IMG/VR virus record: IMGVR_UViG_2703718815_000003
DNA: 64,000 nt
Source: a virus
Taxonomy: Duplodnaviria > Heunggongvirae > Uroviricota > Caudoviricetes
Direction: 5' to 3' (one strand)
Within the stretch, counting starts at the first letter, position 1. The number at the start of each line of letters is the position of its first letter. Both the position numbers and the translations under genes were made by a program. Of this stretch, positions 25,970 to 44,204 are shown in pieces. The notes under the pieces are model-generated. The model made no database searches. It was not told where the DNA came from and saw only the letters and a program-made list of their open reading frames with translations.

Positions 25970-26649
25970 TACATACGCTCCTTGTAGTAGTCGACCAGCC
26001 ACACCAGAGCCTCACCAGCGTTCTCCATTTCATTACCGGTGTTAATAGCCTGCTCTTTGATGATGTTTTTTATGGTTTCTGCAACGCGATCTGACGCATC
26101 GAAAGTTACTTTGAAGCGCATGGTCTGATGTTCCGCCCCCACACGTTCGGTTTTCTCTCGTTTGTCGGTATCGACAGGCTCATCACTACCACGAGACAAC
26201 GCCTCCAGTGCTTCAAGGTCGATTGCCGCCTCTTTTGCTATAACCATCGAGATTTCGTCGTCATACGGGGCGATTTCAGACAGTTGATAGTCAAGTTCTG
26301 ACTGAATTTCTTCAATGAAGCGTTGCAATGCGATTTGGTCGTCTTCACCGTATCGCTCGTTGTCCACCAGTGACATCTGTTTAGCTACGACATCGCTAAT
26401 TTTGCCCACAGAAAGCACTGGAACCGTTGAAATTCCTTGCTCAATAGCGGCACGCCAGCGATGTTCGCCGCCGAGGATTTCAAAAAATCCATCTTCAAGT
26501 TCACGAGCCAAAATTGGCTTAAAAAAGCCCAATTTTTCGATAGAACCTTTCAGTTTTTCAAAATTCTGCGCACCAACCGAATTGGTGTTCCAGGTATTCG
26601 GGCGAAGGTTGGCAACATCAACCTGCAAAATCGTGATTTTTACATCCAT
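25969..26649 (-). CDS. ParB/Srx-fold (ParB N-terminal domain) protein 2
   Basis: LGGEHRWRAA matches ParB box II; first ATG at 26647-26649 (track start is GTG). Confidence 0.7.
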   Translation of the reverse strand: MDVKITILQVDVANLRPNTWNTNSVGAQNFEKLKGSIEKLGFFKPILARELEDGFFEILGGEHRWRAAIEQGISTVPVLSVGKISDVVAKQMSLVDNERYGEDDQIALQRFIEEIQSELDYQLSEIAPYDDEISMVIAKEAAIDLEALEALSRGSDEPVDTDKREKTERVGAEHQTMRFKVTFDASDRVAETIKNIIKEQAINTGNEMENAGEALVWLVDYYKERM

Positions 26650-26666
26650 TTTATTGCTACAATCCA

Positions 26667-26694
26667 CTAAGTAATCACTTACTTACTATAATAG
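26667..26694. promoter_or_regulatory. palindromic TAAGTA...TACTTA motif in divergent promoter region
   Basis: ctaagtaatcacttacttactataatag between the divergent ParB operon and helicase gene. Confidence 0.4.
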
Positions 26695-29838: not shown

Positions 29839-30453
29839 TTGGATTATCATGATATGAAAATGAAACTTTCGTTACTCCTTGCTTGTATATACCTCCCGGC
29901 GTTTTCCGCCAACGCATTATCAGATTTCGTCTATGACATGCAAAAAACGTACAGCATGTTTACCTCCGAAGACGTAGTAGAATACAAATCACGAGGTCTG
30001 AATCAGCCAGTTTGGTTCAGATTCTCAGACAACGCAGAAGAAACAATACTTAATGGAGGAAAAGAAAGATTACGGTTGCAAATTAACGGGACCGCTGTAC
30101 CAGAAAACGTTAATGTAAGCTCTGACGAAGCCATGAAGCCATCTGGAATTGTTTTAGAAGTTCAAGACGGCACACTTTACTGTGATGAAATGGCTACAAC
30201 AGGTTGCCAAGTAAACATTAGGGTTGGCAATGAAGAGCCTATCGTTACTTACGCCAAGGCTGAAGGGAATACAAGTGGAAAGGTATTGTTTATCGATGAA
30301 AATATCTCAAAACGTATCGTTCGTGACATACAGAAAACAGCTAACTCTAAATCCGTCGATAAAAAAATCTATGTTGAGGTTCCCTTCTTTGTCGTTGGTA
30401 ACAAAGAATTTAAATTTGGGTTGCTGAAAACACCTCTAAGAGTATCAGAATGA
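29839..30453 (+). CDS. predicted secreted protein
   Basis: N-terminal signal-peptide-like MKMKLSLLLACIYLPAFSANA; exact start uncertain (ATGs at 29839, 29854, 29860). Confidence 0.5.
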   Translation: MDYHDMKMKLSLLLACIYLPAFSANALSDFVYDMQKTYSMFTSEDVVEYKSRGLNQPVWFRFSDNAEETILNGGKERLRLQINGTAVPENVNVSSDEAMKPSGIVLEVQDGTLYCDEMATTGCQVNIRVGNEEPIVTYAKAEGNTSGKVLFIDENISKRIVRDIQKTANSKSVDKKIYVEVPFFVVGNKEFKFGLLKTPLRVSE

Positions 30454-30974
30454 GAACATTGGACATCACCTACGGCATACCGGCTGAAGTCTGGCCGCGA
30501 GACTACGAACATGCTGAGAACATACTTATGTTCTGGCGGAAGAACAACATTCCTGTAAGAGTCACGCTTGAAGACGGTCAGGTGTTTTGCATGTACGTTC
30601 AGGGGACAATGCCTTCACGCAATAAGCTAGATTTATGCCCGATTCCATATGATAAAGAAAATCGTATAAGACTCCCACTTGAGCGCATTAGCACAATTGA
30701 ATCAGGTGTAATCGATGGCATTGCTCGCGAGTTCAAAGGTAGGCTAACAATACATCCAGACTATGTTGACAATCAGCCATCACGCCGTGACTTTTTTGCG
30801 ATATGTCGCAAGGCTTATCAAAACGACCAATCTATAAGGGTCTACATGACAGACGGTCGTGAAATAGAAGGGGTGTCAAGAGGCGTTGATGCTTGCCAGG
30901 TCACTCTTAAGTTAGAAGACGGCAGAAAAATACTTGTTTTCTTCGATTGGGTTGAACGAATCCTTCCATTTTAA
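30450..30974 (+). CDS. hypothetical protein
   Basis: 174-aa ORF overlapping previous stop. Confidence 0.5.
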   Translation: MRTLDITYGIPAEVWPRDYEHAENILMFWRKNNIPVRVTLEDGQVFCMYVQGTMPSRNKLDLCPIPYDKENRIRLPLERISTIESGVIDGIAREFKGRLTIHPDYVDNQPSRRDFFAICRKAYQNDQSIRVYMTDGREIEGVSRGVDACQVTLKLEDGRKILVFFDWVERILPF

Positions 30975-31165
30975 ATCTATAAGGGTAATAACCGGCTAAG
31001 TCCGGTTATTATTTTACATGCCATTCATTTAAAACTCTTTCAATGCCACCCCGTATAAATATATAAGGTTAAAGGCCCGAATTGATTATTTATTTAGGGA
31101 ACACCTTCGACGATCTCGCTTTTATTTCTAGGACTTTCATCCCTGCAGAAAATTTAAAAAAACAC

Positions 31166-31194
31166 TTGCAATCTTTTTTCACGTATTGATAATT
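31166..31194 (+). promoter_or_regulatory. sigma70-like promoter
   Basis: TTGCAA - 17 nt - ATAATT upstream of the 31269 gene. Confidence 0.4.
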
Positions 31195-31268
31195 GAACTC
31201 GTCGAAAGCGAGCTGGCTAACGACAGTAAAAAATAAATTCATTTTAATTTTTCGTAAGGATGTCCATC

Positions 31269-31919
31269 ATGGCTAACATTATCATTTCTAAAAAGTCCAT
31301 CATTGAAGCTGCTGCCATTGTATCCGACGAGCTGCGCGAAAAAGCAGATCTGGCAACTCAAACATATAACGAACATTATAAAAATGGTACGCACACAAAA
31401 GCAGACAAAGCAAATATGCAAGCTGCAACCACCAAACTTGCTTACTTCATCAACAACGTCGTAAACGCAGTAGAAGACGAAAAATTATGCTCTGTTTTCT
31501 ACTATGCGATCAAAGCAAGTAAACAAGCGCCAGAAGTATTTTTCCGTGATGCAATGACTAATAGTTATTCACTGGAAAAACTGGTTTATCTGGTTAAATC
31601 CATTAAAGCTGGTAAATGTGTTTATTCCGTCGCTGATATGTCAGGATCTCGTGTGTTCGCTTTAATCGATATGATTAACGACGAGATCGACACGTTCACC
31701 AATGGCGCTGTTTTCGATTTAATGAATGAAGCTAAAAAAGCGTGCGAAATTAAATTGGACGCTGGCTATACTCAAGCCAACCAGCTTATCAATCTTTGCG
31801 AACGTCTTGGACTTGTTGAGAAAGTCAAAGGAATGGGAAGCGCAAAAGCTGGTACGCAGCAATATCGCTTTATTAAAAATGATTTCTATAACTATCTGGC
31901 TGATGCTTTCAAAGCGTAA
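31269..31919 (+). CDS. hypothetical protein
   Basis: AAGGA 8 nt upstream of ATG 31269; 216 aa. Confidence 0.55.
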   Translation: MANIIISKKSIIEAAAIVSDELREKADLATQTYNEHYKNGTHTKADKANMQAATTKLAYFINNVVNAVEDEKLCSVFYYAIKASKQAPEVFFRDAMTNSYSLEKLVYLVKSIKAGKCVYSVADMSGSRVFALIDMINDEIDTFTNGAVFDLMNEAKKACEIKLDAGYTQANQLINLCERLGLVEKVKGMGSAKAGTQQYRFIKNDFYNYLADAFKA

Positions 31920-31932
31920 TTAATGGAATCTG

Positions 31933-31953
31933 GCGCCCACTATGGGCGCTTTT
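31933..31953 (+). terminator. intrinsic terminator (GCGCCCA cta TGGGCGC + TTTT)
   Basis: Perfect 7-bp GC stem followed by T-run. Confidence 0.6.
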
Positions 31954-31966
31954 AAGGAGCTTAATC

Positions 31967-32197
31967 ATGTTTATTCTTATCGCTGGCGTTAACGTGCGCA
32001 ATGAATATTTTGTTAATCGCATCGCTGGGATCGCTGGTTACGCTGGGCGCGCAGTCGAGCTTATAGATGAAACGACGCGCAAAATTGACTTATTGAGCGA
32101 CCAGGAGCGAAAAAAAGCAGACGTGAATGACGCTGATATATTTTTAATGTTAAAAGCGTTTGTAGAAATGGGATTTGAAATCAGTTTACATAAATAA
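31967..32197 (+). CDS. hypothetical small protein
   Basis: AAGGAG 7 nt upstream; 76 aa; bracketed by two identical terminator hairpins. Confidence 0.5.
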   Translation: MFILIAGVNVRNEYFVNRIAGIAGYAGRAVELIDETTRKIDLLSDQERKKADVNDADIFLMLKAFVEMGFEISLHK

Positions 32198-32203
32198 AAT
32201 CGA

Positions 32204-32226
32204 GCGCCCACTATGGGCGCTTTTTT
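32204..32226 (+). terminator. intrinsic terminator, same hairpin as 31933
   Basis: GCGCCCA cta TGGGCGC + TTTTTT. Confidence 0.6.
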
Positions 32227-32229
32227 CGT

Positions 32230-32680
32230 TTCCAATACTCCCACCATAACGCGCCATCATTAGCGCGTTTTTTATTGTCTTTGACTCACACCAACAACAT
32301 AAAAATAAGCGCCAAAATAACGCCATAGACGCGCTTTTATATCCTTACCAGTACATACCCATTACTTAGCGCATTAACGCGCTTAAATCGCGTTATATTG
32401 CGTTATGGTGTATGGTTAATCATTGGTTTTTATTCTTGCTATGTGATCCGCGTTTAATTGTCGGCGCGGATCGGCATTTTGTTTTGTTCCGTATCCGCTC
32501 GCGTATTATGTGCGCGTGATTTTTCACATAATCACACCACTTAATCACATATGTGATTACGCTACGAAAGAAATCTGGATGTCTCAGGCGACGAAAGTCA
32601 TCATAATTTTCCCCGCTCACCTGTCCGACAACCGCTGGTTGGATTCCACCAGCTTCCCGATGTTTTTTCTATATAAAGGC
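32230..32680. other. structured non-coding region with multiple GCGC-based hairpins and palindrome atcacatatgtgat
   Basis: No convincing ORF; several short inverted repeats (aacgcgcc..gcgcgtt, gatccgcg..cgcggatc). Confidence 0.4.
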
Positions 32681-32810
32681 GAATGCAGCCGTTTCCCGAA
32701 AAAATCCTGGCCGTTTCCCGTCGGCTCATGAATGCGTTCCTCGCCGTTTCTGAAAATTTCCCTGCGGCAGCTGGTGGCTATAGAGAAAGGGCCGTTTCTG
32801 GCCCTCTTCT
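32680..32810. repeat. iteron-like direct repeats, cluster 1 (core GCCGTTTCC/GCCGTTTCT)
   Basis: At least 4 copies: cagccgtttcccgaaaaa, ggccgtttcccgtcgg, cgccgtttctgaaaat, ggccgtttctggcc. Confidence 0.5.
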
Positions 32811-32813
32811 CAG

Positions 32814-33296
32814 TTACACGCCATCAAGGATGTGGATGCGGTTGCTTGCGTATACATTCAGCATAAAGTTAGCGCAAAACAGTTTCCATGTGTCAACGCC
32901 AGCGGTATACGTAATGTTTTTGCATTTAATCGCATTGTTGGCGATCCGCATCCCCTGCGATACTGCTTCATCGTCGGAAAATTTGAACGACGATTGAGTT
33001 TTAATCCAGACAGAAATCTGCGTAGCGAACTCAATCAGCTTGGACTGGCAGAATCGCCCGGAGCGCACCGGAAAGACGAACGTTCCGAACCCAGAATTTA
33101 CCACATACGCTTTCTCAAATACCCGCGAGTAACGACGATTGCCAATGATGTCGCGTGCAATAATGCATTTTTCTTGTGCTGACAGTTCTACCGTCTCATT
33201 GTCGCGCCATGCACCAAGTACTCGTTTTTCAATGTCAGAGAACGTTACAGCGATATTGCCATGTGCGGGTGCGTTTACAGTAGCGATAAAATTCAT
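32814..33296 (-). CDS. hypothetical protein
   Basis: 160 aa; ATG preceded by early promoter/operator motif and AGGA. Confidence 0.5.
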   Translation of the reverse strand: MNFIATVNAPAHGNIAVTFSDIEKRVLGAWRDNETVELSAQEKCIIARDIIGNRRYSRVFEKAYVVNSGFGTFVFPVRSGRFCQSKLIEFATQISVWIKTQSSFKFSDDEAVSQGMRIANNAIKCKNITYTAGVDTWKLFCANFMLNVYASNRIHILDGV

Positions 33297-33302
33297 GATT
33301 AA

Positions 33303-33345
33303 TTCCTTATCGTAAATAACAAATTGTTTTCTTGTTGGTGTTAAT
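33303..33345 (-). promoter_or_regulatory. early promoter/operator motif (GATAAT..CACCAAC.AGAAAACAA.TTGTT)
   Basis: Minus-sense cgataattaacaccaacaagaaaacaatttgttatt about 20 nt upstream of ATG. Confidence 0.45.
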
Positions 33346-33500
33346 TATCGTTGTACGAATAAGGCGTCAAAGTGGAAAGTTGCGGTAGCCGGACGGGAAC
33401 AGGTGGGTTTGTCGGTTGCCTGGAGGTAAGAGGTTGGTGTTTTTAGCCTGCGGGAAACAGGATGGTCATTTAAGGCCACCAGCATTGGTGGCCTTAATCT

Positions 33501-33782
33501 TTAGTGGAGCAGACCGATGTCGATGGTATCCCCTGAATCATCCACACGGATCATCAGCATGGCAAAGGCGTTTAGTGGATAGCTTGCGTGCCATTCAGGG
33601 AAGCGGTCATCTCGCATGAAGTCGGCAATGTCGTAAACGCATCCCTCAAAGTGGAAGAATCGCGTGCTTACCTGCTCGTCATAATCCACATGATCCATTT
33701 CTTGCTGTTCTGTTTCCGGCAAGTCCAGCCATGATTCAAGGAATACATTTTGTGCTTTAGGGGTAATGGTGAAATCAGTCAT
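33501..33782 (-). CDS. hypothetical acidic protein
   Basis: Start set to ATG 33780-33782 with GAGGA upstream; motif copy upstream at about 33795-33835. Confidence 0.5.
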   Translation of the reverse strand: MTDFTITPKAQNVFLESWLDLPETEQQEMDHVDYDEQVSTRFFHFEGCVYDIADFMRDDRFPEWHASYPLNAFAMLMIRVDDSGDTIDIGLLH

Positions 33783-34117
33783 GAGCATATCCTCACTGCG
33801 TAAACATATTGTTTTCTTGTTGGTGTAATTATCGCAGTGTAGATAAGGCATAAAAGAAGTTAATACAGGCTGAATACACAAGAAAGGTTCTGGAAGTTGA
33901 TAGCCAGGTTTCAAACTAACCTTCGGTTATTAAAAGTCATTTAAGACCACCAATGCTGGTGGCCTTAATAATTATCGCCCGATTACGCTAAGGATCTTTT
34001 CCTCAACTGATTTGTTGTTGCGACTAAACTGCCTTGCGTATCTGATGACAGAAGAGGCGTTTCGCTTTCTGACCATCTCGGCTCTCTCCTTCAGGCGTTT
34101 CTTGAAATCGCCCATAT

Positions 34118-34492
34118 TTACCACCAGGCGCAGAAGGTCAGTCTGTTATTGTGAAAGTCGTGGTTCTTAATCAGATCTTCCACAAGCTCTTTCAACTCCC
34201 CCACATCATGCCAGTAACCTTCATCGTACTCCTGACTGCCGAAGAAAAAACCTTCCCGGGTAGGCAAGTACTCTTCGCAATTACTTTCGTTTATGTGCAT
34301 CAAATGAGCCTTCAGAAAACAAATGTCATTCATCGTTAATTCTAAAAGCTCACAATTTTCGACTTCACCTACGTTGCGCTCCATCCACCCAACGAGCGCA
34401 TTGAACTTACGGAAGTAAGCAACCTGCTTTCTGGATGCCTCGTTATTCAGATCGTTTTTAGGCTGTGTCTCGATATAGATATCAAGTCCCAT
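34118..34492 (-). CDS. hypothetical protein
   Basis: Start ATG 34490-34492 with AAGGA upstream. Confidence 0.5.
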   Translation of the reverse strand: MGLDIYIETQPKNDLNNEASRKQVAYFRKFNALVGWMERNVGEVENCELLELTMNDICFLKAHLMHINESNCEEYLPTREGFFFGSQEYDEGYWHDVGELKELVEDLIKNHDFHNNRLTFCAWW

Positions 34493-34609
34493 GATGGTTT
34501 CCTTATTAAGTTGCTTCAGTGAAATCATTTTCACAAATCAGATAAGGCAGAAAACAAATTGTTATCGGGCATAAGAAAATGGCGCGGTTTACGCGCCATT
34601 CAAAGAGGA

Positions 34610-35005
34610 TTAAGCGAATACGCTTTCAGGGATTAAGGTGTCAGCAGGAATGCCAGAGGTAATGCGCAGGCCGTACTGACCAATCCAGGTAGTGTTGGTA
34701 TTCAGGTTGGAGGCGAATACGGTGTTAACCATATTCATCATGGTTTCAAACACCTCTTCATCAACCTGGCGGAAGTAGTTCTCGATTTTCAGCAGCAGCG
34801 GGTCAGTTGCATCGAGAATGGACTGGTATTGAGTCGCGTACTCGCCGCCGGAGGCATCACCTTTACGCACGATCGTACTGGCCTGGACTTCGGCACCAGT
34901 TTCGGTGTTGTGCGTAACAACGGTGATTTTTGCCACATTCTTACCTTCGGCGGTTTCAGAGGCATAGTAAACATCAACTGTCAGTTTTTCGCGTTTAACG
35001 GTCAT
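34610..35005 (-). CDS. hypothetical protein
   Basis: Start ATG 35003-35005 with GGAGAG upstream; 131 aa. Confidence 0.5.
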   Translation of the reverse strand: MTVKREKLTVDVYYASETAEGKNVAKITVVTHNTETGAEVQASTIVRKGDASGGEYATQYQSILDATDPLLLKIENYFRQVDEEVFETMMNMVNTVFASNLNTNTTWIGQYGLRITSGIPADTLIPESVFA

Positions 35006-35131
35006 TTCACTCTCCGTAGTGTTTTGGTTATTTTTATATTCTATGATAGTAAGTATGTACTTACAATACAAAAAAGCCCCGTAAGGATGGCGGGGCTGTC
35101 GTACTGTCGACTAATTGCCACTTGCACATTA

Positions 35132-35443
35132 TCAGGCTATTGCCATCACTGATGCTCTCTGAATCTCTTGCTGGGCCACGCGGTTAACTTCCATCAAAGC
35201 CAGTTCGAGCTGATGTTCCGGCCACATTCTTTGAAATGCCACCCAGCCTTTTCCACGCTGGCGACGAACATTCATTACATAACGAGTAAAGGTGTTTTTA
35301 TCGAAAGATACCGCTGTTTCACGGAACAGACGAATAGAGGTTCCATTGGCAACGATGTCCAGCAAAGTTAATTGAGCAACCAGCGCAGGCTTCTCTTTTC
35401 TCTTCTGGTCTTTGTCCAGACCAAGAACCAATGATTTTTTCAT
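35132..35443 (-). CDS. hypothetical basic protein
   Basis: Start ATG at 35443 downstream of motif gagaaaacaagttgtttacggag. Confidence 0.5.
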   Translation of the reverse strand: MKKSLVLGLDKDQKRKEKPALVAQLTLLDIVANGTSIRLFRETAVSFDKNTFTRYVMNVRRQRGKGWVAFQRMWPEHQLELALMEVNRVAQQEIQRASVMAIA

Positions 35444-35596
35444 TACAACTCCGTAAACAACTTGTTTTCTCAATGGCGTAAATAATACCAGTAAGAAAAC
35501 GGCTACAAAGCATATTGATCAGGCGCATGAGCGATATGCAGGTTCTTCCCTGCGGCTATAGAGAAATTAAGCCAGCAATGCTGGCTTTGGTTGGGG

Positions 35597-35926
35597 TTAC
35601 TCGAATACTTCAAGAAACTCCTGAACGTCCCAATGCTGGACGAGGTGAAGATAGACCTTAGAAATCACGTCATTTTCGCTATCGCATGTGAAGTAGTACT
35701 TCTGGCTGCGGTTGTATGTGTCCACACAAAATTCGCTCATATCCATAAAGTCAGCATCTTCACCCATGTCGCAAATCATCAAAGCAGGTGCGTCATCACG
35801 AGTCATCAGCTCAAGCACCCACCGCGAATTGATCAGAGTGGAAGACCAACCTTCTAACTCATAAAACTGATCAAACTCTTTTTGAGTTAATTTCTTGATT
35901 TGGTTGATGTCGATATTTGCAAACAT
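35597..35926 (-). CDS. hypothetical acidic protein
   Basis: ATG 35924-35926 with AAGGA; motif aacaagttgttt immediately upstream (track start is TTG). Confidence 0.5.
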   Translation of the reverse strand: MFANIDINQIKKLTQKEFDQFYELEGWSSTLINSRWVLELMTRDDAPALMICDMGEDADFMDMSEFCVDTYNRSQKYYFTCDSENDVISKVYLHLVQHWDVQEFLEVFE

Positions 35927-36279
35927 AAAGCAATCCTTAAACAACTTGTTTTCTCGTTGGTGTTATTATCGCAATAACGCACAGGCGAAAAAGGATTTTA
36001 TTCCGGTGAATGTTGTTTTGGCAGTGAGTTTTCAGGTTCAGTATCGAGTACACTTTTTACATTATTCTGATTTAGTGGCCGAAGGTGGCTGGTGGCAGAG
36101 TAATCCTCTCCCCAAAAACCTACTGAAATCGATTGTGCCCCGTTGGCTGTCTGGCACAATTACGCTGTAGCTGGGCATTCAGAGGGAATCCAGCGGTAAG
36201 CAAGTCCGCCTACGTGAGCGCCTCTCTTCTTCCCGCACATTACAGGTGGGTAGCCGCAACTCTCCCTCTCGCTATACCG

Positions 36280-36430
36280 GTACGCCGCCGTTCCTGAACC
36301 GGCATCGAGCCTTCTCCCGAAATCCACACAGGCAACTCGACCGTTTCCCTGAAAACCTCCAGCCGTTCCCCGAAGGCAACCCAGCCGTTTCTGTAGCGGG
36401 ATGCAACCTTTTCCCTGTATGGACCGAAGG
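36280..36430. repeat. iteron-like direct repeats, cluster 2
   Basis: gccgttcctgaacc, gaccgtttccctgaaaa, agccgttccccgaagg, agccgtttctgtagc, aaccttttccctg. Confidence 0.5.
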
Positions 36431-36599
36431 CTGACCGTAGGGGTTTTACGGGGGATAAAATCAGGAGTTGAATAAATACGAAAAAGGAGGCGACACCCCT
36501 CCTTCCCTCCCCACTTATACATACCTGGCTTCTTCGCTATACATGTTGTGTTTTATCTGTCTCAACCTCTCTATAGGCGTTAATGCTCACTCCTTCCAG

Positions 36600-37330
36600 A
36601 ATGTTCTATACGGCGACTATTTCTGTTGGTGAATTGGGTGTGTTGTTCTCTCTGTCGGTGTATGTGGTTTCGTTCGTTTTGCGGTGGTTCTTCTATGGGG
36701 TGTTCTCGTCGTTTTGGTGATTGTTCTTCTCCGTGTATGGAGTAATGGCAGGTGGGCGATTCCTTTCGTTGTTGTGTTTGAGTTGTTTGTCTGGAGTGTG
36801 TGAAAGGCTTTTGTAGTTATTCGTGTATTGGGTAATGGCATTTCCCGTGATTGTTATGTTTCGTGTCTTTTGGGATTGAGAGAATCCTTGCGGTTACAGG
36901 CTTCGTTGGGGTTTCAGTGATTCTGGTGTTTCTTCGCTGTTTGGGGAATGGCGTGTCGTGGGTATCGCGCGTATGAATGTTTTCGGATTGCCTGTGAAAG
37001 TTAGGTTGGTTGTCCGGTAGCCTGGGGAGAAGAGGTGGGTTGTTTTTGGAAATGGCATGTGTGTTATTTAGTTGTTTTGTTATGCCTGAAAATAAGTTGT
37101 TTATATGGTTGTGTAACGCAACGGGAGCGATTTTGAGCGTGTGTTTTTGTTGGTAGTGTGTTGGGTCGTCTGTGGTGAAAATTGGACGCTGTGGCGCTGT
37201 CTGCTGCGTAGAGTTGCGGGTATAAGAAGTGATGTGTGAAAACGTCAATTTTTTAGACCAAATCGGGTGAAAGCGTTGACGTTTCGTTGATCTGTTATTT
37301 AGTTGTTTTCTTATTTGTATAAACAACCAT
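36600..37330. repeat. GT-skewed (plus strand) degenerate tandem repeat tract, unit about 90-100 bp
   Basis: Plus strand almost entirely G+T; units end in g(a/g)gtaATGGCA / ggaaATGGCA at about 36743, 36833, 36943, 37043. Confidence 0.5.
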
Positions 37331-37436
37331 AACCTATTGATATTTAAGGGTATGATTGCAGGTATGGAAGGGGAGTAGTGGCGATCAACGGATTCTTATA
37401 GAAAAGAATCAAATTGTGACCGCCATTATCAATGTT

Positions 37437-38171
37437 TTACATAGTTTTGTTTAGCAGAGAGAGAATTTCATCACTAATTTCACTCGCCTGTTTGATAGCC
37501 AATGCAGTTACCTCTTCTATGGTTGGTGACTGTTGATGCTCATGTTTGGTTTCAGTTATGACAATGTGTTCTTCACCTGAATTTGCGCATAGTGCCGCAT
37601 TGACGATAAGGTTTGAGTAAGAATTTAGCAGAGCACTGTTGATGAACGCTTTCACGGTATTACTGTCTGCACCAAATACATCTTTTCTGACCGCTTCAGC
37701 CTCACAGCGAACCCCTGCAGCAACATCGTGAAGAACATGTATGGCCTTGGAGCTTGTTTGTTCACAGTACTCAATCATTATTGTCGAATTGTTCTGTTCA
37801 ACAAACGATCTGATGCCTGACGATTCACCCATAGCATCGAAGGCAGCATGACCCGCACTGGTAGAGATATCTTCATAGAGTTCTTCATCGCTATCTTTTT
37901 CTTCAGGTGTCGAGGTGTCTTCATCGTCGTAATAGATATTGCCTTTAATCAGTGTCTTGGACACTTGATATAAACAATAAGAAACGAGATTTAAGCATTG
38001 GATTTTAGCTGTATTGTCCTTTGTCGCCTCGCTCTTCAGTTCTTTCGCTTCTTCAGTAAGGCTGTTGATAAGACTTTGTATTTTTTCCAACGCGTTAGGC
38101 GCACACTCCGCGTTGTCCATAAAGAATTTATAACCAGTCCCAGGGATTTCTAAACTTTTCAACTTTTTCAT
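37437..38171 (-). CDS. hypothetical protein
   Basis: 244-aa ORF. Confidence 0.5.
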   Translation of the reverse strand: MKKLKSLEIPGTGYKFFMDNAECAPNALEKIQSLINSLTEEAKELKSEATKDNTAKIQCLNLVSYCLYQVSKTLIKGNIYYDDEDTSTPEEKDSDEELYEDISTSAGHAAFDAMGESSGIRSFVEQNNSTIMIEYCEQTSSKAIHVLHDVAAGVRCEAEAVRKDVFGADSNTVKAFINSALLNSYSNLIVNAALCANSGEEHIVITETKHEHQQSPTIEEVTALAIKQASEISDEILSLLNKTM

Positions 38172-38216
38172 TTCTTTGATAATCCTAAAAACAAACTACC
38201 AATGCTTTAATATCTG

Positions 38217-38516
38217 TTACCAGTTCCAGCACTCAAGCCCTTCAACGACCGGCGCACCACAATCAAAATGTACAGAGTCAAAGCCTACATCAAGTACTTT
38301 CTGAATGTTAGCAATCGCGCCTTCGGATATACCATATCGACGCAAGTCGTCTTTCCAGACATCATTCTGTAACCCGGCGTGAACAATACAACCGCCATCA
38401 ATTTGTGAAACCCAATCCAGCTCATTGCTTGCGATCATGAATCGGCGAGCATCTTCCTCTGATGTATGAGATGAACTGATCAATGCCACCTGGTAGGCTT
38501 GGGTAATGTTCAACAT
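38217..38516 (-). CDS. hypothetical protein
   Basis: 99-aa ORF; two copies of early motif upstream/downstream (38520-38600). Confidence 0.5.
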   Translation of the reverse strand: MLNITQAYQVALISSSHTSEEDARRFMIASNELDWVSQIDGGCIVHAGLQNDVWKDDLRRYGISEGAIANIQKVLDVGFDSVHFDCGAPVVEGLECWNW

Positions 38517-38677
38517 TTCAACTACTCCAAAACAAGTTGTTTTCTTATGTGGCTTATTATCTCAATCAACAAAAGGTAGAAAACAAATTGTTTTAGGGCT
38601 TGTGTAAATCAGGAGGGATTGTGTCTATATGAAAATGCCCAGCGTGTTGCCGGGCATTGTGAAAAATGGTTGTTTAG

Positions 38678-40711
38678 TTACTTAACTTGGTGGCCTGGTT
38701 TAGCACCAGCATCCGGGCTTAACAGGAAGATATCTTTTCCGCCAGGGCCAGCAGCCATCACCATGCCTTCGGAGATACCGAAGCGCATTTTACGCGGTGC
38801 CAGGTTAGCCACCATAATGGTGTGACGACCAATCAGTGCCTGTGGGTCTGGATAAGCAGAACGGATGCCTGAGAAGACATTGCGTTTTTCACCGCCGAGA
38901 TCCAGCGTCAGGCGCAGCAGTTTGTCAGAACCTTCAACAAACTCTGCGTTTTCGATCAGTGCCACGCGCAGGTCAACTTTGGCAAAGTCGTCAAAGGTGA
39001 TGGTTTCCTGAATCGGGTCGTCTGCCAGCGGGCCAGTAACTGGCGCGGCAGCTGCTTTCACTTCTTCTTTGGATGCTTCCACCAGTGCTTCAACCTGCTT
39101 CATATCGATGCGGTTATACAGTGCCTTGAACGGATTCACTTTATGGCCCAGCAGCGGTTGCTGGATACCATCCCAGGTCAGTTCTGTATTCAGGAATGCT
39201 TCTGCACGTTCAGTCAGTTTCGGCAGTACCGGCTTCAGGTACGTCATCAGCACGCGGAACAGGTTAATGCCCATAGAGCAAATCGCCTGCAGATCGGCAT
39301 CGCGTCCTTCCTGCTTCGCCACCACCCACGGAGCCTGTTCATCGACATAGCGGTTAGCCAGGTCAGCCAATGCCATGATTTCACGGATAGCTTTACCAAA
39401 TTCACGGCTTTCCCATGCTTCGCCAATCACTTCAGCGGCATCAGTAAAGGTTTTGTACAGTTGCGGGTCAGCCAGTTCGCTTGCCAGCACGCCGTCAAAA
39501 CGCTTGTTGATAAAGCCTGCATTACGGGAGGCCAGGTTAACCACTTTGTTCACGATATCGGCATTCACGCGCTGAACGAAATCCTCCAGGTTGAGATCGA
39601 TATCATCAATGCGCGAAGAGAGTTTCGCAGTGTAGTAGTAACGCAGGCTGTCAGCGTCAAAATGATTCAGCCAGGTGCTGGCTTTAATAAAGGTGCCGCG
39701 AGACTTGGACATCTTCGCGCCGTTCACCGTCACATAGCCGTGAACAAACAGGTTGGTCGGCTTGCGGAAGTTGCTGCCTTCCAGCATGGCAGGCCAGAAC
39801 AGGCTGTGGAAGTAAACAATATCTTTACCGATGAAGTGGTACAGCTCGGCGGTGGAGTCTTTCTTCCAGTATTCATCGAAGCTGGTGGTATCGCCGCGCT
39901 TGTCGCACAGATTCTTGAAGGAACCCATGTAGCCAATCGGCGCGTCCAGCCAGACGTAGAAATATTTGCCCGGCGCGTTCGGAATTTCAAAACCGAAGTA
40001 GGGCGCATCTCGGGAGATATCCCACTGTTGCAGGCCGGATTCAAACCATTCCTGCATTTTGTTCGCCACCTGCTCCTGCAACGCGCCGCTGCGGGTCCAT
40101 GCCTGCAACATTTCGCTGAAAGAAGGCAGATCAAAGAAGAAGTGTTCGGAATCACGCATTACCGGGGTAGCGCCAGAAACCACCGATTTCGGCTCGATCA
40201 ATTCAGTCGGGCTATATGTTGCGCCGCAGACTTCACAGTTATCGCCGTATTGATCTGGCGCTTTACATTTCGGGCAGGTGCCTTTTACAAAACGATCCGG
40301 CAGGAACATGCCTTTTTCCGGGTCGTACAACTGAGAGATAGTGCGGTTTTTAATAAAACCGTTCTCTTTCAGGCGAGTATAGATAAGCTCAGACAACTGA
40401 CGGTTCTCTTCGCTGTGCGTCGAGTGATAGTTGTCATAGCTGATGTTAAAGCCTGCGAAATCAGTCTGGTGTTCCTGACTCATTTCGCCAATCATCTGCT
40501 CCGGTGTGATACCAAGCTGCTGTGCTTTCAGCATGATCGGCGTACCGTGGGCATCGTCGGCACAGATGAAATTAACCTCGTGGCCGCGCATTCGCTGGTA
40601 ACGAACCCAGACATCAGCCTGGATGTGCTCCAGCATATGGCCGAGGTGGATTGAGCCGTTAGCGTACGGCAGCGCGCACGTCACCAGAATTTTCTTCGCG
40701 ACTTGGGTCAT
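38678..40711 (-). CDS. metG: methionyl-tRNA synthetase (host-type MetG)
   Basis: 677 aa from [26 protein letters not shown]; class I motifs SIHLGH and KMSKS, CPKC/CEVC zinc knuckle, C-terminal tRNA-binding domain. Matches enterobacterial MetG as I recall it, not verified by search. Confidence 0.95.
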
Positions 40712-40868
40712 AGTAGGCATTACTTCTTTGTAGTGAAAAGGGGCTTGATAGTAACAAAATGGCCTTATGTCTGCCATGTGATAACAGCATTTCTCATAAA
40801 TGATTAAATGTCGTAGCTGGAGTACACTACAAGGCGACAATTGCGCAAATTAAAATAAAGGAGACGGG

Positions 40869-41969
40869 ATGAGCGAGTCCAAATCGCCGGATGCCCTGAG
40901 AGCAATGGTAGCCGGTACGCTGGCTAATTTTCAGCACCCAACCCTGAAACACAACCTGACTACGCTTAAAGCGTTACACCATGTTGCGTTGATGGATGAC
41001 ACACTGCATGTCGAACTAATCATGCCTTTCGTGTGGAATAAGCCTTTTGAAGACCTGAAAGAGCAATGTAGTGGTGATCTGCTCCGTATCACTGGCGCAA
41101 AGGCTATTGACTGGAAGCTGTCGTACAACATTGCCACGCTTAAGCGCGTCAAAAACCAACCAGGCATTAATGGCGTTAAGAACATTATCGCCGTCAGCTC
41201 AGGCAAGGGCGGCGTGGGTAAATCCTCCACGGCGGTAAACCTGGCACTGGCGTTGGCTGCTGAAGGTGCGAAAGTTGGTATTTTGGATGCCGATATCTAT
41301 GGTCCATCAATTCCAACCATGCTGGGCGCGGAAAACCAACGTCCAACCTCACCTGACGGTACTCACATGGCACCTATCATGTCTCATGGCCTGGCAACCA
41401 ACTCTATTGGTTATCTGGTCACCGACGACAATGCAATGGTGTGGCGTGGACCGATGGCGAGCAAGGCGTTAATGCAGATGTTGCAGGAAACATTGTGGCC
41501 TGATCTGGACTATCTTGTTCTCGATATGCCGCCGGGCACTGGTGATATTCAGTTGACGCTGGCGCAGAACATTCCTGTAACTGGTGCTGTTGTGGTAACT
41601 ACGCCGCAAGACATCGCGCTGATCGATGCGAAGAAAGGCATTGTGATGTTCGAAAAAGTCGAAGTGCCGGTACTTGGTATCGTCGAAAACATGAGTGTGC
41701 ATATTTGCAGTAACTGCGGTCATCACGAGCCAATTTTTGGCACCGGTGGCGCAGAGAAACTGGCCGAGAAATACAACACGCAGTTGTTAGGCCAAATGCC
41801 ACTTCATATCTCTCTTCGTGAAGATCTGGATAACGGAACACCAACCGTTATTAGTCGTCCAGATAGTGAATTTACGGCTATTTATCGTGACCTCGCAGAT
41901 CGCGTTGCTGCCCAAATGTATTGGCAAGGTGAAGTAATACCTGGCGAAATCGCATTCCGCGCAGTGTGA
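40869..41969 (+). CDS. apbC: Fe-S cluster carrier ATPase ApbC/Mrp
   Basis: Mrp/NBP35 P-loop SSGKGGVGKS and CSNCGH motif; divergent from metG as in enterobacterial chromosomes. Confidence 0.95.
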   Translation: MSESKSPDALRAMVAGTLANFQHPTLKHNLTTLKALHHVALMDDTLHVELIMPFVWNKPFEDLKEQCSGDLLRITGAKAIDWKLSYNIATLKRVKNQPGINGVKNIIAVSSGKGGVGKSSTAVNLALALAAEGAKVGILDADIYGPSIPTMLGAENQRPTSPDGTHMAPIMSHGLATNSIGYLVTDDNAMVWRGPMASKALMQMLQETLWPDLDYLVLDMPPGTGDIQLTLAQNIPVTGAVVVTTPQDIALIDAKKGIVMFEKVEVPVLGIVENMSVHICSNCGHHEPIFGTGGAEKLAEKYNTQLLGQMPLHISLREDLDNGTPTVISRPDSEFTAIYRDLADRVAAQMYWQGEVIPGEIAFRAV

Positions 41970-41970
41970 T

Positions 41971-41994
41971 AAAAAGGCGGTGCATTGCACCGCC
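41971..41994. terminator. hairpin terminator between apbC and UmuD'-like gene
   Basis: ggcggtgca t tgcaccgcc with A-run on plus strand (T-run on minus). Confidence 0.5.
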
Positions 41995-42006
41995 TAATCA
42001 GTTCTC

Positions 42007-42396
42007 CTACATCACGGGACAATCATCAAACTCGCCACTTCTTGCGTCGTTGATAATGTGAGTGATCACACCAAACACGGCATTGCTGCCCGTGCATCCA
42101 TCGTCATCCTTTGGCAATGCTTCCTTCTTACCGGTTCTTAAATCCTCCAGATGCTGACGTGGGTACTTCCGGTATCTTTTTACGCGATATTCCCCATCCA
42201 GAGCGCATACAAGCAGAGAACCATCAACCGGGGTAAGTGAGGAATCGACCACCAGCAATGCACCCTGTAATATTCCCTCACGATGATGACTATCAGCTGC
42301 CCTCATGAAGTAGGTCGCTGAAGGATGTCTAATTATCTGCTGATCAAGAGAAATACGGCTCTCAGCATAATCCGCCGCAGGAGAAGGGAAGCCCAT
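42007..42396 (-). CDS. UmuD'-like S24 peptidase-fold protein (pre-truncated UmuD homologue)
   Basis: Starts MGFPSPAADYAE...HPSATYF, i.e. at the UmuD segment after the RecA-cleavage site; Ser (AADSH) and Lys (VKRYRK) positions retained; no umuC partner; AGAGG RBS. Confidence 0.75.
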   Translation of the reverse strand: MGFPSPAADYAESRISLDQQIIRHPSATYFMRAADSHHREGILQGALLVVDSSLTPVDGSLLVCALDGEYRVKRYRKYPRQHLEDLRTGKKEALPKDDDGCTGSNAVFGVITHIINDARSGEFDDCPVM

Positions 42397-42412
42397 AATA
42401 CTCGCCTCTTAA

Positions 42413-42432
42413 TACTGTATACACATACAGTA
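42413..42432. promoter_or_regulatory. LexA (SOS) box
   Basis: TACTGTATACACATACAGTA, perfect CTGT-N8-ACAG, about 17 bp upstream of UmuD'-like start. Confidence 0.75.
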
Positions 42433-42728
42433 TATATTGAAGCTATATATTTTTGAACTCTATCTCTTAAAAAAGATGTTAATAAGATGCTAACTATTGA
42501 AAGGCATAAATATATACAATTCAAACAAACGTTATTTTTAACAAATTTTTTCTTCCCATTGACTTTTTCGAACGCCTTGTCCGGTCTAAAGTGCGCAGAA
42601 GTCACTTTTTCCTTCCTGAGTTATCCACAGGCTTATGCACTTGCATGAAAAATCTATTCACACTATCTTAATTCGCAAGACACTGATGTTGCAGTATTGA
42701 GGGTATGTTGGGTTAAAAATAGACATTA

Positions 42729-42758
42729 AAAAGCCCAGTTGACTAGGCTGGGCTTTTT
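42729..42758. terminator. bidirectional intrinsic terminator
   Basis: aaaagcccag ttgactagg ctgggcttttt. Confidence 0.55.
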
Positions 42759-43058
42759 AAAAGGAAACAGAGTTTGCGGCTCTGTTCCTGAGCCATAAGT
42801 ATCTGGCGACTGAATTAAGATTAACCGAATGTACTGGATTCATCAAGAAAGGTTGAGTGGTCATACCAGGTAATAATGACCATTTACTAAACATCGTTGT
42901 TCTCAAAGAAGATTTAAGTCCAGGTTTTTGGTGACTCTAAAACCTTACCTTAACTCGAAATCGTGCCGTAAGTATCTGGCGACTACAGATATTGCAACTG
43001 CAAAGGCAAGCCCAAAGGTATTTGCAGCTAGGCGCGATAAAACTAAGTGAGGCCTGTT

Positions 43059-43142
43059 ATGGTTAACTTACTGTTCAAAATCGTGCCGCCGATGTTCGCG
43101 ATTATCAAAGCGATCATTGAGTACGTAAACCAGCGTCCATAA
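43059..43142 (+). CDS. small hydrophobic peptide (27 aa)
   Basis: MVNLLFKIVPPMFAIIKAIIEYVNQRP; GTGAGG 6 nt upstream of ATG; hairpin terminator follows; below ORF-track threshold. Confidence 0.35.
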   Translation: MVNLLFKIVPPMFAIIKAIIEYVNQRP

Positions 43143-43155
43143 CGCTAGTTGCTAC

Positions 43156-43180
43156 AGGCCCCATCAAGAGCATGGGGCCT
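43156..43180. terminator. hairpin terminator
   Basis: aggccccat caagagc atggggcct 9-bp stem. Confidence 0.5.
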
Positions 43181-43197
43181 CTTTATCGTACTATTGC

Positions 43198-43824
43198 TTA
43201 TTTTTTACGGACTGAGTTGTTCACTGCTCTGGCAATCTTCTCCCGCAATTGCTGCGTTCCGTGGTACTGAACCGCAATATCTCTCAACTCGTTCACCAGT
43301 TCTCGAATCTGGTGATCTTTAAGCTCATTATTTGGGTGATTGGTAACAACTCTGGTTAATTCACCCTTGTCTTTTGCTCTTACGTATGCAGCTCTTGTGC
43401 ATTCGACCCATGTATTACCGCCTACATTAACTTCGTAGATTAGGCTGGACTTATCTGTCAATTCGGAACAAATACGGGCCGTGGTCTGGCAACTAGAGCA
43501 TTCGCAGTTATCGCGGAAACCGTGATCTACCGGTCGAGAAAGAGGTTTAACTTTTTCATCCAACTTCATCACAGCATCGTGATAAGCGTTCCAGCCGTCA
43601 TCTTTACCAAGTTGATAAATCTCTGAAGGCTCCATGTAGTCTATATCGCAACCTTCTTCATCCGATCTATCTGGTCGCTTCCCTGGTAATCGCTCATAAA
43701 AACGATTTCTGTCTCGACGTTCGGCTCTCAGTGCTAACGCAAGAAGTTGCTCAAGCGAGGTATTTGCACCAGCAATAATTTTATTGAGAATATCTTCTGT
43801 GAGATCTTTCGCTACCGTGCTCAT
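43198..43824 (-). CDS. hypothetical protein
   Basis: 208-aa ORF with Cys cluster CECSSC. Confidence 0.5.
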   Translation of the reverse strand: MSTVAKDLTEDILNKIIAGANTSLEQLLALALRAERRDRNRFYERLPGKRPDRSDEEGCDIDYMEPSEIYQLGKDDGWNAYHDAVMKLDEKVKPLSRPVDHGFRDNCECSSCQTTARICSELTDKSSLIYEVNVGGNTWVECTRAAYVRAKDKGELTRVVTNHPNNELKDHQIRELVNELRDIAVQYHGTQQLREKIARAVNNSVRKK

Positions 43825-44204
43825 TTATCTCTCTCAGTATGTTGCGATGGCGTAAATTTGACGACATCAAATATTTTGGATGGCATCAACTTTATCCGCG
43901 AGCTTAGTTCGGCTCTTCTCTGTAATGCGGTTAATAATGTTTTCGTTCTGACGCCTTCGTGTATCCTCATCCCTGGCACAAGAACTACATCGCAGGGGAG
44001 ATGCTCAGGTGACAAATCATTTTGGGCATCGCTAATCAGTCGTGTAATCTCTCTTTCAAGCCGACCGCCTAGCTCTGTTTTAGTGCAATGTTCTGACCAA
44101 TCGCCAGCCTCAAGCAGCGCGAGAATGCTTAAAATATCGTCCAATAGATCAGTGGTATTATCGACTTCCTTCTGAAACTCACCGGCTACTGATTTATGCA
44201 TCAT
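43821..44204 (-). CDS. hypothetical protein
   Basis: 127-aa ORF, overlapping stop/start with neighbours. Confidence 0.5.
   Translation of the reverse strand: MMHKSVAGEFQKEVDNTTDLLDDILSILALLEAGDWSEHCTKTELGGRLEREITRLISDAQNDLSPEHLPCDVVLVPGMRIHEGVRTKTLLTALQRRAELSSRIKLMPSKIFDVVKFTPSQHTERDK

Follow-up and report, generated by a model that had tools for sequence, protein, structure and literature searches.

A stretch of 64,000 nt from the virus record IMGVR_UViG_2703718815_000003 (Caudoviricetes), referred to below as the window, contains at about 36600-37330 a tract of some 730 bp whose plus strand is dominated by G and T, and this locus raises the question of what such a tract does. In a first-pass annotation, made from the letters alone, it had been suggested that the tract could be a structured single-stranded DNA or RNA element, a decayed repeat array or a set of small peptide genes. 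Judged from comparison with homologous sequences, it is a conserved, unannotated, strand-asymmetric non-coding element that borders an island of accessory genes. The role proposed for it here, tentatively, is that of an exceptionally long Rho-loading terminator or insulator, which would form the main body of a 1.4-kb non-coding block between the exchangeable island and the conserved phage genes.

The base composition of the tract was determined. The plus strand between 36600 and 37200 consisted of G (0.33), T (0.41), C (0.12) and A (0.14), and in 200-nt segments across 36600-37300 the GC skew ranged from +0.41 to +0.60 and the AT skew from -0.38 to -0.65. The most extreme 700-nt segment started at 36601 and had a G+T content of 0.726 (z = 9.7), whereas elsewhere in the window the mean was 0.50 and the maximum was 0.564. 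Across 100 kb of the closest plasmid, no other 300-nt segment reached a G+T content of 0.64 or more. The strong GT skew noted in the first-pass annotation was thus real and unique, but the description of the strand as almost only G and T was exaggerated, since about 26% of its bases were C or A.

To describe its conservation, copies of the block containing the tract were collected from plasmids, genomes and metagenomes, and 46 of them, falling into six clades, remained once redundant ones had been removed; three of the related loci came from viral contigs and four from species-representative genomes, the diversity being supplied by a metagenome scan. The tract was found to be the core of a 1.4-kb block (35958-37433), which measured 1.43-1.51 kb (1.71 kb in copies with an inserted plus-strand 80-aa gene at the left) and kept a constant layout in all 46 copies. 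Identity between clades was 0.62-0.78 in the tract, compared with 0.37-0.48 at the saturated third codon positions of the neighbouring 103-aa gene, and 301 of the 613 tract positions (49%) were identical in all six clade consensuses. The same base composition was kept in all clades. Even the columns that varied between clades had a G+T content of 0.648, and exchange between G and T was the commonest substitution in the tract (27-30% vs 7-17% in the flank). Because the variable columns stay skewed, and arrays of double-stranded binding sites need no such skew, this pattern is a sign of selection for the composition of a single strand, acting on RNA or single-stranded DNA. The earlier remark that such asymmetry is atypical of coding DNA was correct: conserved, and skewed in its varying columns too, the tract behaves as a functional non-coding element at the level of one strand.

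The coding capacity of the tract was studied on both strands. Variable sites were distributed among the codon phases without 3-nt periodicity (p = 0.64-0.77, n = 81-313), whereas in the neighbouring gene, used as a control, periodicity was clear (p = 3e-6). Indels of 1, 2, 5, 16 and 31 nt, which shift the frame, separated the clades. The mini open reading frames (ORFs) were from 7 to more than 50 aa long and unrelated in sequence between clades, and their ATG was lost in relatives L009 and L024. The long open frames on the minus strand, which are to be expected because T and G are scarce there, were not collinear between clades. Coding on either strand is ruled out by the lack of periodicity, by the indels and by ORFs that are not collinear, and the tract is non-coding. 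The four Cys-rich peptides quoted in the first-pass annotation were translated correctly, but the starts assigned to them were not convincing: the sequence has GGAG only 2 nt ahead of the ATG, a spacing too short for a Shine-Dalgarno sequence. A conserved start, length and peptide, together with a Shine-Dalgarno sequence 5-9 nt upstream, as would be required of small ORFs, were not found for the mini-ORFs of the tract.

The suggestion of a structured element was not supported either. Single-sequence folding gave z values of +1.08 for the plus strand and -1.30 for the minus strand, neither of them better than shuffled sequences, and in sliding-window alignment folding z did not fall to -3 anywhere in the tract other than at two short inverted repeats, which scored on both strands. 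A search of Rfam 15 with both strands of 30000-44000 gave no match in or beside the tract at E <= 1. The minus-sense RNA was predicted to be nearly structure-free (-75.8 kcal/mol per 661 nt). Its composition would be A 0.40, C 0.32, G 0.12 and U 0.17. In the minus sense, the C/G ratio was at least 1.5 in every 78-nt segment over 740 nt, while the next longest such stretch in the 64 kb was 222 nt; over the 760 nt read from 37379 to 36620 the ratio was 2.76. In the left half of the block, it was the plus sense that had a C/G ratio of at least 1.5, over 240 nt (36187-36427).

The region in the window was 96-98% identical to E. coli plasmids of about 108 kb and to the phages Cyrano, CMS-2020a and PhiR41_1, which belong to the SSU5/pHCM2 family; the window is an SSU5/pHCM2-like phage-plasmid. 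Such phage-plasmids are widespread in clinical Enterobacteriaceae, and published work has described resistance and defence genes in their exchangeable islands. Of the 5,426 complete E. coli genomes, 243 contained the tract, in each case on a plasmid and never on the chromosome, and the block (36100-37440) matched 839 PLSDB plasmids from Klebsiella, Escherichia, Enterobacter, Salmonella, Citrobacter and Cronobacter. In most records the block was unannotated; where it carried ORF calls, these were inconsistent, with differing strands in Cyrano, PhiR41_1 and SSU5, and elsewhere none were called. A survey of the literature on SSU5/pHCM2 origins, termini or non-coding RNAs yielded nothing on this region.

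Nearly all genes of the closest plasmid were on the minus strand (in the sense of the window), and the genes flanking the block were all on the minus strand, in the window as in every relative. Beyond 37433, on the right, relatives differed in their genes: the window carries a 244-aa protein, a methionyl-tRNA synthetase (MetRS) paralogue and an ApbC-like protein, and the relatives carry GIY-YIG, NYN or DUF4145 genes. Because of this variation, the block is one fixed border of an exchangeable gene island. Several full-length metagenome contigs of the E. coli type seemed to end about 2 kb into the island, within the MetRS gene. These ends were rejected as physical genome ends and read as an assembly break, because the MetRS gene has a chromosomal homologue. 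Separately, a copy of about 756 bp of the right part of the block was observed in large Klebsiella IncFIB/IncHI1B plasmids (L017, 3619-4360; L018, 3727-4483), 94-97% identical to a Klebsiella phage-plasmid. The left edge of this copy abutted unrelated sequence resembling part of an insertion sequence, DUF262 and type I restriction-modification genes adjoined it, and it looks like cargo moved out of a phage-plasmid island.

The features of the block were then considered in the direction of transcription. C-rich, G-poor unstructured RNA is the substrate onto which Rho loads, and a Rho utilization (rut) site calls for at least about 80 nt of untranslated, unstructured RNA with more C than G; the tract offers 740 nt of it in the minus sense. 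A stable stem-loop without a U tract lies directly upstream, and the C>G RNA begins right after it. In the minus sense this stem-loop (37424-37380) had a predicted energy of -13 to -20 kcal/mol in nearly all of 29 sequence variants, its outer stem GGCGGUCA/UGAUCGCC was invariant and was followed by ACUACUCCCC, and in the relatives it lay 12-76 nt past the stop codon of the last island gene, whichever that was. At the other end of the tract, the hairpin 36507-36481 had 94% of its alignment cells paired, compared with 63-78% when the 3' partners were slid, and 20 cells were changed on both sides, compared with 0-5 in the slid controls; covariation was seen in this flanking hairpin only. Many of its pairs were G.U, equivalent to C.A mismatches on the plus sense, so that it forms on the minus sense only. 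Together with its U-rich tail (36507-36471), it looks like an intrinsic terminator.

Expression data were available for a lysogen, E. coli LF82 with the phage-plasmid Cyrano, which is 95% identical here, as log2(fpkm+5), where fpkm is fragments per kilobase per million mapped reads (PMC9928086, S1 Table). The island gene CYRAN_102 had values of 6.0/5.64 in LB medium and up to 9.2 in other conditions, whereas CYRAN_103, an ORF inside the tract (about 37000-37330 of the window), had values of 2.32/2.32 in LB, which equals zero, and 4.27 at most (PMC9928086). Because CYRAN_102 was high and CYRAN_103 was at zero in LB, it may be concluded that at steady state island transcripts in the lysogen extend no more than about 100 nt past the stop codon, the strandedness of the counts being unstated in PMC9928086. 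In the lysogen the tract does not give rise to an abundant RNA, and the lack of reads over its right-hand part also counts against the small peptide genes of the first-pass annotation. It was reported that in E. coli Rho-dependent 3' ends lie directly after stable stem-loops without U tracts, with the rut immediately downstream (Dar and Sorek 2018, PMC6061677). The proposal of a Rho terminator was made because the layout found here matches: a stop codon, a stem-loop without a U tail, and then untranslated, unstructured C>G RNA.

According to this proposal, polymerase leaving the island on the right would transcribe the tract as untranslated, nearly unstructured, C-rich and G-poor RNA; the C/A-rich sense is assumed because every neighbouring gene is on the minus strand. 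Rho would load on this RNA and release the polymerase somewhere in the 740-nt tract. Exonucleases would trim the RNA back to the upstream stem-loop, which would protect the 3' end of the island transcripts, and the distal hairpin with its U-rich tail would stop any polymerase that gets past. The conserved genes downstream would thus stay under their own promoter, the essentially invariant extended -10 element TGcGATAAT at 35973-35965. In the left half it is the plus strand that is C-rich, and there plus-strand transcripts coming from the left would be stopped, so that the block would work in both directions; this mirror-image half has a plus-strand promoter-like site facing it, replaced in clade D by a plus-strand gene. 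An ORF of 58 aa inserted on the minus strand within the tract of one relative was also counted in favour of the proposal. We infer from this arrangement the identity of Rho as the factor, the exonuclease trimming and the purpose of keeping the downstream genes under their own promoter.

Several repeated sequences in the block were not explained by Rho loading. The repeated motif noticed in the first-pass annotation was present: GGGTAATGGC occurred four times in the tract, always on the plus strand and 90-113 bp apart. With the following R, GGGTAATGGC(R) reads YGCCAUUACYC in the minus sense. Relatives contained up to six copies, always in the same orientation, and at copy 1 the sequence GTGTATGGAGTAAT was identical in all six clade consensuses. 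Degenerate tandem units of 90-100 bp, as described earlier, were not recovered: Tandem Repeats Finder detected in the window no array of such a period and only a chance 14-nt repeat, and the copies shared 18-30 nt only, at spacings of 90, 113 and 104-105 bp. Of the idea of a decayed array, the dispersed direct repeats remained, but these are under selection. In relative L049, a metagenome contig, about 270 nt had been replaced inside the tract at about 37054-37071 and the last decamer copy was gone; the replacement contained an apparent minus-strand ORF of about 58 aa, read from the printed sequence.

Other elements of the block were conserved as well. Relative L025 had 2.3 perfect tandem copies of the 31-bp unit, and 31-nt indels separated relatives. 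The two 22-nt repeats were 230-232 bp apart in 38 of the 46 homologues and flanked the TTGACG-18-TATACC element; the first copy overlapped a weak A/T-rich inverted repeat, TTGTTTT..AAAATAA. The blocks of the 9-bp inverted repeat were invariant and gave an alignment-fold signal on both strands. TTGA(C/T)G and TATA(C/T)N, separated by a fixed 18-nt spacer, were found in all 46 homologues with at least 12 different spacer sequences. This element looks like a promoter, albeit a doubtful one; its -10 hexamer is poor and has no final T. In clade D, which makes up the other nine homologues, the plus-strand 80-aa gene took the place of TTGTGC-16-CACAAT. At the left edge of the block, 35958-35977 differed at a single position among the six clade consensuses and occurred once in the window.

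It should be noted that a number of these findings weigh against a Rho terminator. A rut site is usually about 80-100 nt long and poorly conserved, and it requires neither a length of about 740 nt nor the identity of half of the positions in six clade consensuses. Plain Rho loading has no need of four to six oriented decamer copies or of the 31-bp unit, and a passive terminator does not need a conserved promoter-like element at its head. The uniqueness of the element in the genome suits an origin or another one-per-genome site equally well. Moreover, the decrease in RNA-seq signal occurs within about 100 nt of the stop codon, and it could be the stem-loop rather than the tract that causes termination. 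As for the conserved decamers and the fixed-spacing TTGACG/TATACC element, a factor controlling passage might bind to them, or they could represent a promoter with a transcript that the tract itself attenuates. Because Rho loading leaves the decamers, the 31-bp unit, the promoter-like element, the 22-nt boxes and the GCCGTTTCCC repeats unaccounted for, a DNA site and a trans-acting RNA stay alive as explanations.

Table 1. Positions of the tract, its repeats and signals, and the genes of the adjoining island (window coordinates; promoter, terminator and repeat functions are predicted)
Feature	Position	Strand	Remarks
C/A-rich, G-poor, untranslated, nearly unstructured, rut-like tract	36588-37327	minus	from C/G segments, folding and non-coding tests
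Decamer copy 1, GAGTAATGGC	36740-36749	plus	within a repeat of about 30 nt, GTTCTTCTCCGTGTATGGAGTAATGGC
Decamer copy 2, GGGTAATGGC	36830-36839	plus	
Decamer copy 3, GGGGAATGGC	36943-36952	plus	
Decamer copy 4, GGAAATGGC	37048-37056	plus	
31-bp unit, CGGTAGCCTG..AAGAGGTGGGT.TTTT	37015-37045	plus	single in window; tandem, with variable copy number, in relatives
22-nt direct repeat, copy 1, TGTTATTTAGTTGTTTT(G/C)TTAT	37062-37083	plus	copies 95% identical
22-nt direct repeat, copy 2	37293-37314	plus	231 bp (22 helical turns) from copy 1
9-bp inverted repeat, AAACGTCAA / TTGACGTTT	37240-37248 / 37276-37284		27 bp between arms; overlaps -35 hexamer
GCCGTTTCCC-type motif, six copies	36288-36425	plus	spacing 21-27 bp
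Stem-loop without U tail	37380-37424	minus	12 nt past stop codon (37437) of 244-aa island gene
Conserved hairpin (36507-36481) with U-rich tail	36471-36507	minus	distal end of tract
Promoter-like TTGACG-18 nt-TATACC	37219-37248	minus	predicted start near 37212
Promoter-like TTGACG-16-TTTAGT	37276-37303	plus	points into variable island; 8 of 8 clade representatives
Promoter-like TTGTGC-16-CACAAT	36133-36160	plus	faces plus-sense C-rich half; 37 of 46 homologues
Extended -10 promoter-like TGcGATAAT	35965-35973	minus	for conserved downstream genes; left edge of block
244-aa protein of unknown function and DUF5983 protein			in variable island 37437-41969
Full-length methionyl-tRNA synthetase paralogue	38678-40840	minus	in variable island
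ApbC/MinD-like ATPase	40869-41969	plus	in variable island

The first alternative is that the locus is a double- or single-stranded DNA site present once per genome, namely a lytic origin, a centromere-like or maintenance site, or a binding array for a phage protein. This is considered unlikely, though it is a serious contender. Proteins would then bind at the decamers, at the 31-bp unit and at the 22-bp-spaced GCCGTTTCCC repeats. Such a site would agree with the uniqueness of the element in at least 100 kb, with its high primary-sequence conservation and with the absence of transcription in the lysogen, as well as with the presence of three families of direct repeats in one orientation, one of which has an iteron-like spacing of 21-23 bp and another of which is tandem with a variable copy number. 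The phage-plasmid also encodes its own replication proteins and two ParB_N-domain proteins. However, a double-stranded site does not call for the skew seen in the variable columns, and the decamer spacing was not helically phased (52, 41, 45, 90 and 142 bp in relative L007). By eye, in a survey that included no formal scan, no clade-wide DnaA box or AT-rich unwinding region was noticed. The neighbouring proteins were without known family and no initiator gene was adjacent; the plasmid replicon, with its RepB-family initiator gene, lies 33 kb away and has different iterons, TATGCTGTCAGCGGT. The terminase is T4-like and its gene is about 14 kb away, and the cumulative GC skew showed no polarity switch here.

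Specific versions of this idea were tried and rejected. The tract is not the plasmid origin or incompatibility locus, the real iterons being different in sequence and located beside the distant rep gene; initiator-matching iterons with an adjacent initiator gene, by which iteron-type origins are recognized, were not found at the tract. An R-loop-primed origin of the ColE1 or T4 oriF type, in which an RNA:DNA hybrid downstream of a promoter should clearly exceed the DNA duplex in stability, was discarded since the nearest-neighbour estimate for the tract was within 2 standard deviations of the window average in both directions. A site similar to lambda cosB was suggested by GCCGTTTCC, which was reminiscent of the CGTTTCC core of the lambda R sites, but it was abandoned in view of the type and distance of the terminase and of the repeats, which are all direct.

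Several observations were made on replication and packaging genes. The plasmid replicon (L020, 3795-3900 and 5012-5556; NZ_CP070135.1, 53.8-55.6 kb) has iterons on both sides of its RepB-family initiator gene; at least 15 of these TATGCTGTCAGCGGT iterons were present, many of them 21 bp apart, in a layout that resembles P1 oriR/incA. On the minus strand at 24639-26667, the two ParB_N-domain proteins and an ABC-type ATPase are encoded about 1.4 kb upstream of the terminase genes, and the large terminase subunit belongs to the Terminase_6N, T4-like type.

The distribution of the repeats outside the tract was also studied. A second GCCGTTTCCC-type array was found at 32689-32800, 3.6 kb away, and in the 9-kb loci of all clades the GCCGTTTCCC motif was on the plus strand only, rare stray matches aside. 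The second array consists of four further copies of GCCGTTTC(C/T), 22-48 bp apart, and was kept in all clades; its last copy was inside a terminator-like hairpin, GGGCC..GGCCC. A perfect 16-bp palindrome, AATCACATATGTGATT, was located nearby at 32543-32558, in the intergenic region where plus- and minus-strand gene clusters converge. The TGcGATAAT box at the left edge of the block lies within ATTGCGATAATAAC, and similar boxes precede two other minus-strand genes (33825-33838 and 38553-38566). The box loosely resembles the P1 C1 operator, ATTGCTCTAATAAATTT. The AAAACGTCAA and ATTGCGATAATAAC boxes showed no clear genome-wide enrichment that would suggest an operator role. Chi sites, GCTGGTGG, occurred 18 times on both strands of the 64 kb, compared with 1.3 expected from shuffles, and one copy (36088-36095, plus strand) was inside the conserved block and present in most clades. 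The tract itself was not a Chi cluster: it contained 0 exact, 1 one-mismatch and 7 two-mismatch sites, whereas shuffles contained 0.0, 1.2 and 9.1, respectively.

The second alternative, which is rated somewhat lower again, is a separate, tightly repressed gene for a trans-acting non-coding RNA of about 0.73 kb, running from TTGACG-18-TATACC (start at about 37212) to the hairpin 36507-36481. After induction, a C/A-rich RNA with four to six YGCCAUUACYC motifs would be made and would titrate an RNA-binding protein or a G/U-rich RNA. The 18-nt spacing of the hexamers, fixed in every copy while the spacer sequence varies, is in line with such a gene. The skew sets in no more than about 40 nt from the predicted start and stops some 100 nt short of the minus-sense hairpin with the U-rich tail. 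Furthermore, the two phased 22-nt boxes lie on either side of the promoter-like element in the manner of a looped repressor, the repeated motifs are single-stranded in their setting, and silence in the lysogen fits an RNA of the lytic phase. On the other hand, the -10 hexamer has no conserved final T and the spacer is 18 nt long, and none of the published conditions gave expression. Being C-rich and not translated, such an RNA would also itself encounter Rho termination before reaching 730 nt.

Candidate targets for such an RNA were examined. Sites of the (ARN)n type with n of at least 4, bound by the distal face of Hfq, numbered 0-2, compared with 0.7-1.2 in shuffles, and were thus not enriched, so that an Hfq sponge was rejected. 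For a sponge or mimic of the small RNA GcvB, whose gcvB sequence was verified, sites were no more frequent than in shuffles and were rarer in five of seven clade representatives. Complementarity to GcvB R1 was no greater than in composition-matched shuffles, and duplex energies were no better. On the plus strand, an identity of 13 nt to GcvB R1 at 36768, seen by eye, was absent from the other clades. Mimicry of the fliC leader, the target of FljA-type proteins, was considered because of a FljA-like gene 6 kb away, but no meaningful similarity was found and only a chance 9-mer was common to both. The FljA-like gene itself (30450-30974, plus strand) encodes a 174-aa protein that matched Pfam PF03614 (Flag1_repress, FljA repressor of phase-1 flagellin) with E = 9e-81, and its residues 123-165 gave a weak, sub-threshold match to Hfq. 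By means of this protein the phage-plasmid may interfere with host flagellin expression.

Transcription of the plus strand was regarded as improbable. It would give a G/U-rich RNA from the site at 36133-36160 (in clade D, from the 80-aa gene) to a weak hairpin and T-rich run at 37075-37103. This is supported by the occurrence of the promoter-like element in 37 of the 46 copies and of a plus-strand gene at the same place in the other nine, as well as by the hairpin, TTGTTTTC-N8-GAAAACAA, which is followed by an invariant TTGTTTA and whose stem in clade A keeps its pairing only via G.U on the plus sense. However, this hairpin was very weak in clades A and E (-1.7 to -3.2 kcal/mol). The RNA would first have to cross 240 nt of C>G sequence and then the hairpin at 36507-36481, which is unable to form on the plus sense; plus-sense RNA had no conserved structure, and the right-hand part of the tract was without reads in LB.

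A bolder version of the trans-acting RNA, and a long shot, is that after induction the promoter at 37248-37219 makes an abundant 0.7-kb C/A-rich RNA that acts in trans, through YGCCAUUACYC, as a decoy for Rho or another host factor binding C-rich single-stranded RNA, and so lifts host-imposed termination and silencing across the phage-plasmid. No RNA of this kind with an antiterminator function is known to us.

A tract without function, in which a decaying repeat had acquired its skew from strand-biased mutation, is very improbable: in the close pair L008/L015 the identity of the tract (0.83) was about that of the third codon positions (0.84), but the distant clades retained far more identity in the tract than at such positions, half of the tract was invariant among the clade consensuses, and the length and layout of the block were constant. 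Least credible of all is a set of small Cys-rich peptide genes starting at GGAGTAATGGC motifs, for although the ATG inside the decamer was kept in most copies and an 18-aa frame at 36948 kept its length in five of the six clades, the results of the coding analysis and the disagreement of annotators on the strand of the ORFs, or on their presence, contradict it.

If the block is a very long two-way Rho-dependent insulator, this would explain how cargo genes of widely differing expression are swapped without disturbing the neighbouring phage genes, and the block would be a natural part for insulating synthetic constructs. If it is instead a lytic origin or the source of a decoy RNA, it would provide a handle on the induction and spread of phage-plasmids. 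Whichever reading holds, annotators should be warned against ORF calls in this region.

The locus was compared with known systems. Like the iteron arrays of P1 oriR/incA and of the lambda ori, the segment 36288-36425 contains direct repeats in one orientation 21-23 bp apart, with a second array 3.6 kb off. Unlike those arrays, it has no initiator gene beside it and no DnaA boxes or unwinding region that could be noticed by eye; the plasmid's own iterons are different and lie 33 kb away, and the skewed tract itself is not an iteron array.

CsrB/CsrC and CrcZ are RNAs that act as protein sponges, and AgvB is a prophage-encoded anti-small-RNA that mimics the C/A-rich targets of GcvB. The likeness of the tract to these RNAs is that of a non-coding RNA displaying several copies of a short motif in single-stranded form. 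The tract differs in being G-poor and without GGA motifs, and its (ARN)n sites and GcvB complementarity are at the level expected from composition. Its RNA, at about 0.7 kb, would be much longer than AgvB, and it is not expressed in the lysogen.

The early terminators of lambda type (tR1/tL1) are C/A-rich, Rho-dependent terminators between an early promoter and the genes that follow, and at the lambda nut sites (boxA/boxB) short conserved RNA motifs decide whether polymerase passes. The tract would share with them the combination of a C/A-rich phage terminator with short conserved RNA motifs nearby. Here, however, neither an N-like nor a Q-like antiterminator was identified, the match of YGCCAUUACYC to the lambda boxA, CGCUCUUA, is a loose one, and alignment folding found no conserved boxB-like hairpin.

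The comparison that underlies the proposed Rho terminator is with the Rho-dependent terminators of Dar and Sorek (PMC6061677). The locus departs from these in that its C>G region is about 740 nt long rather than about 100 nt, in that the tract is conserved in primary sequence across genera and contains repeated decamers, and in that the tract is followed by a second hairpin and has a mirror-image counterpart, C-rich on the opposite strand. The order of the parts is nevertheless the same, and here, too, the steady-state transcript level in the lysogen drops sharply at the stem-loop.

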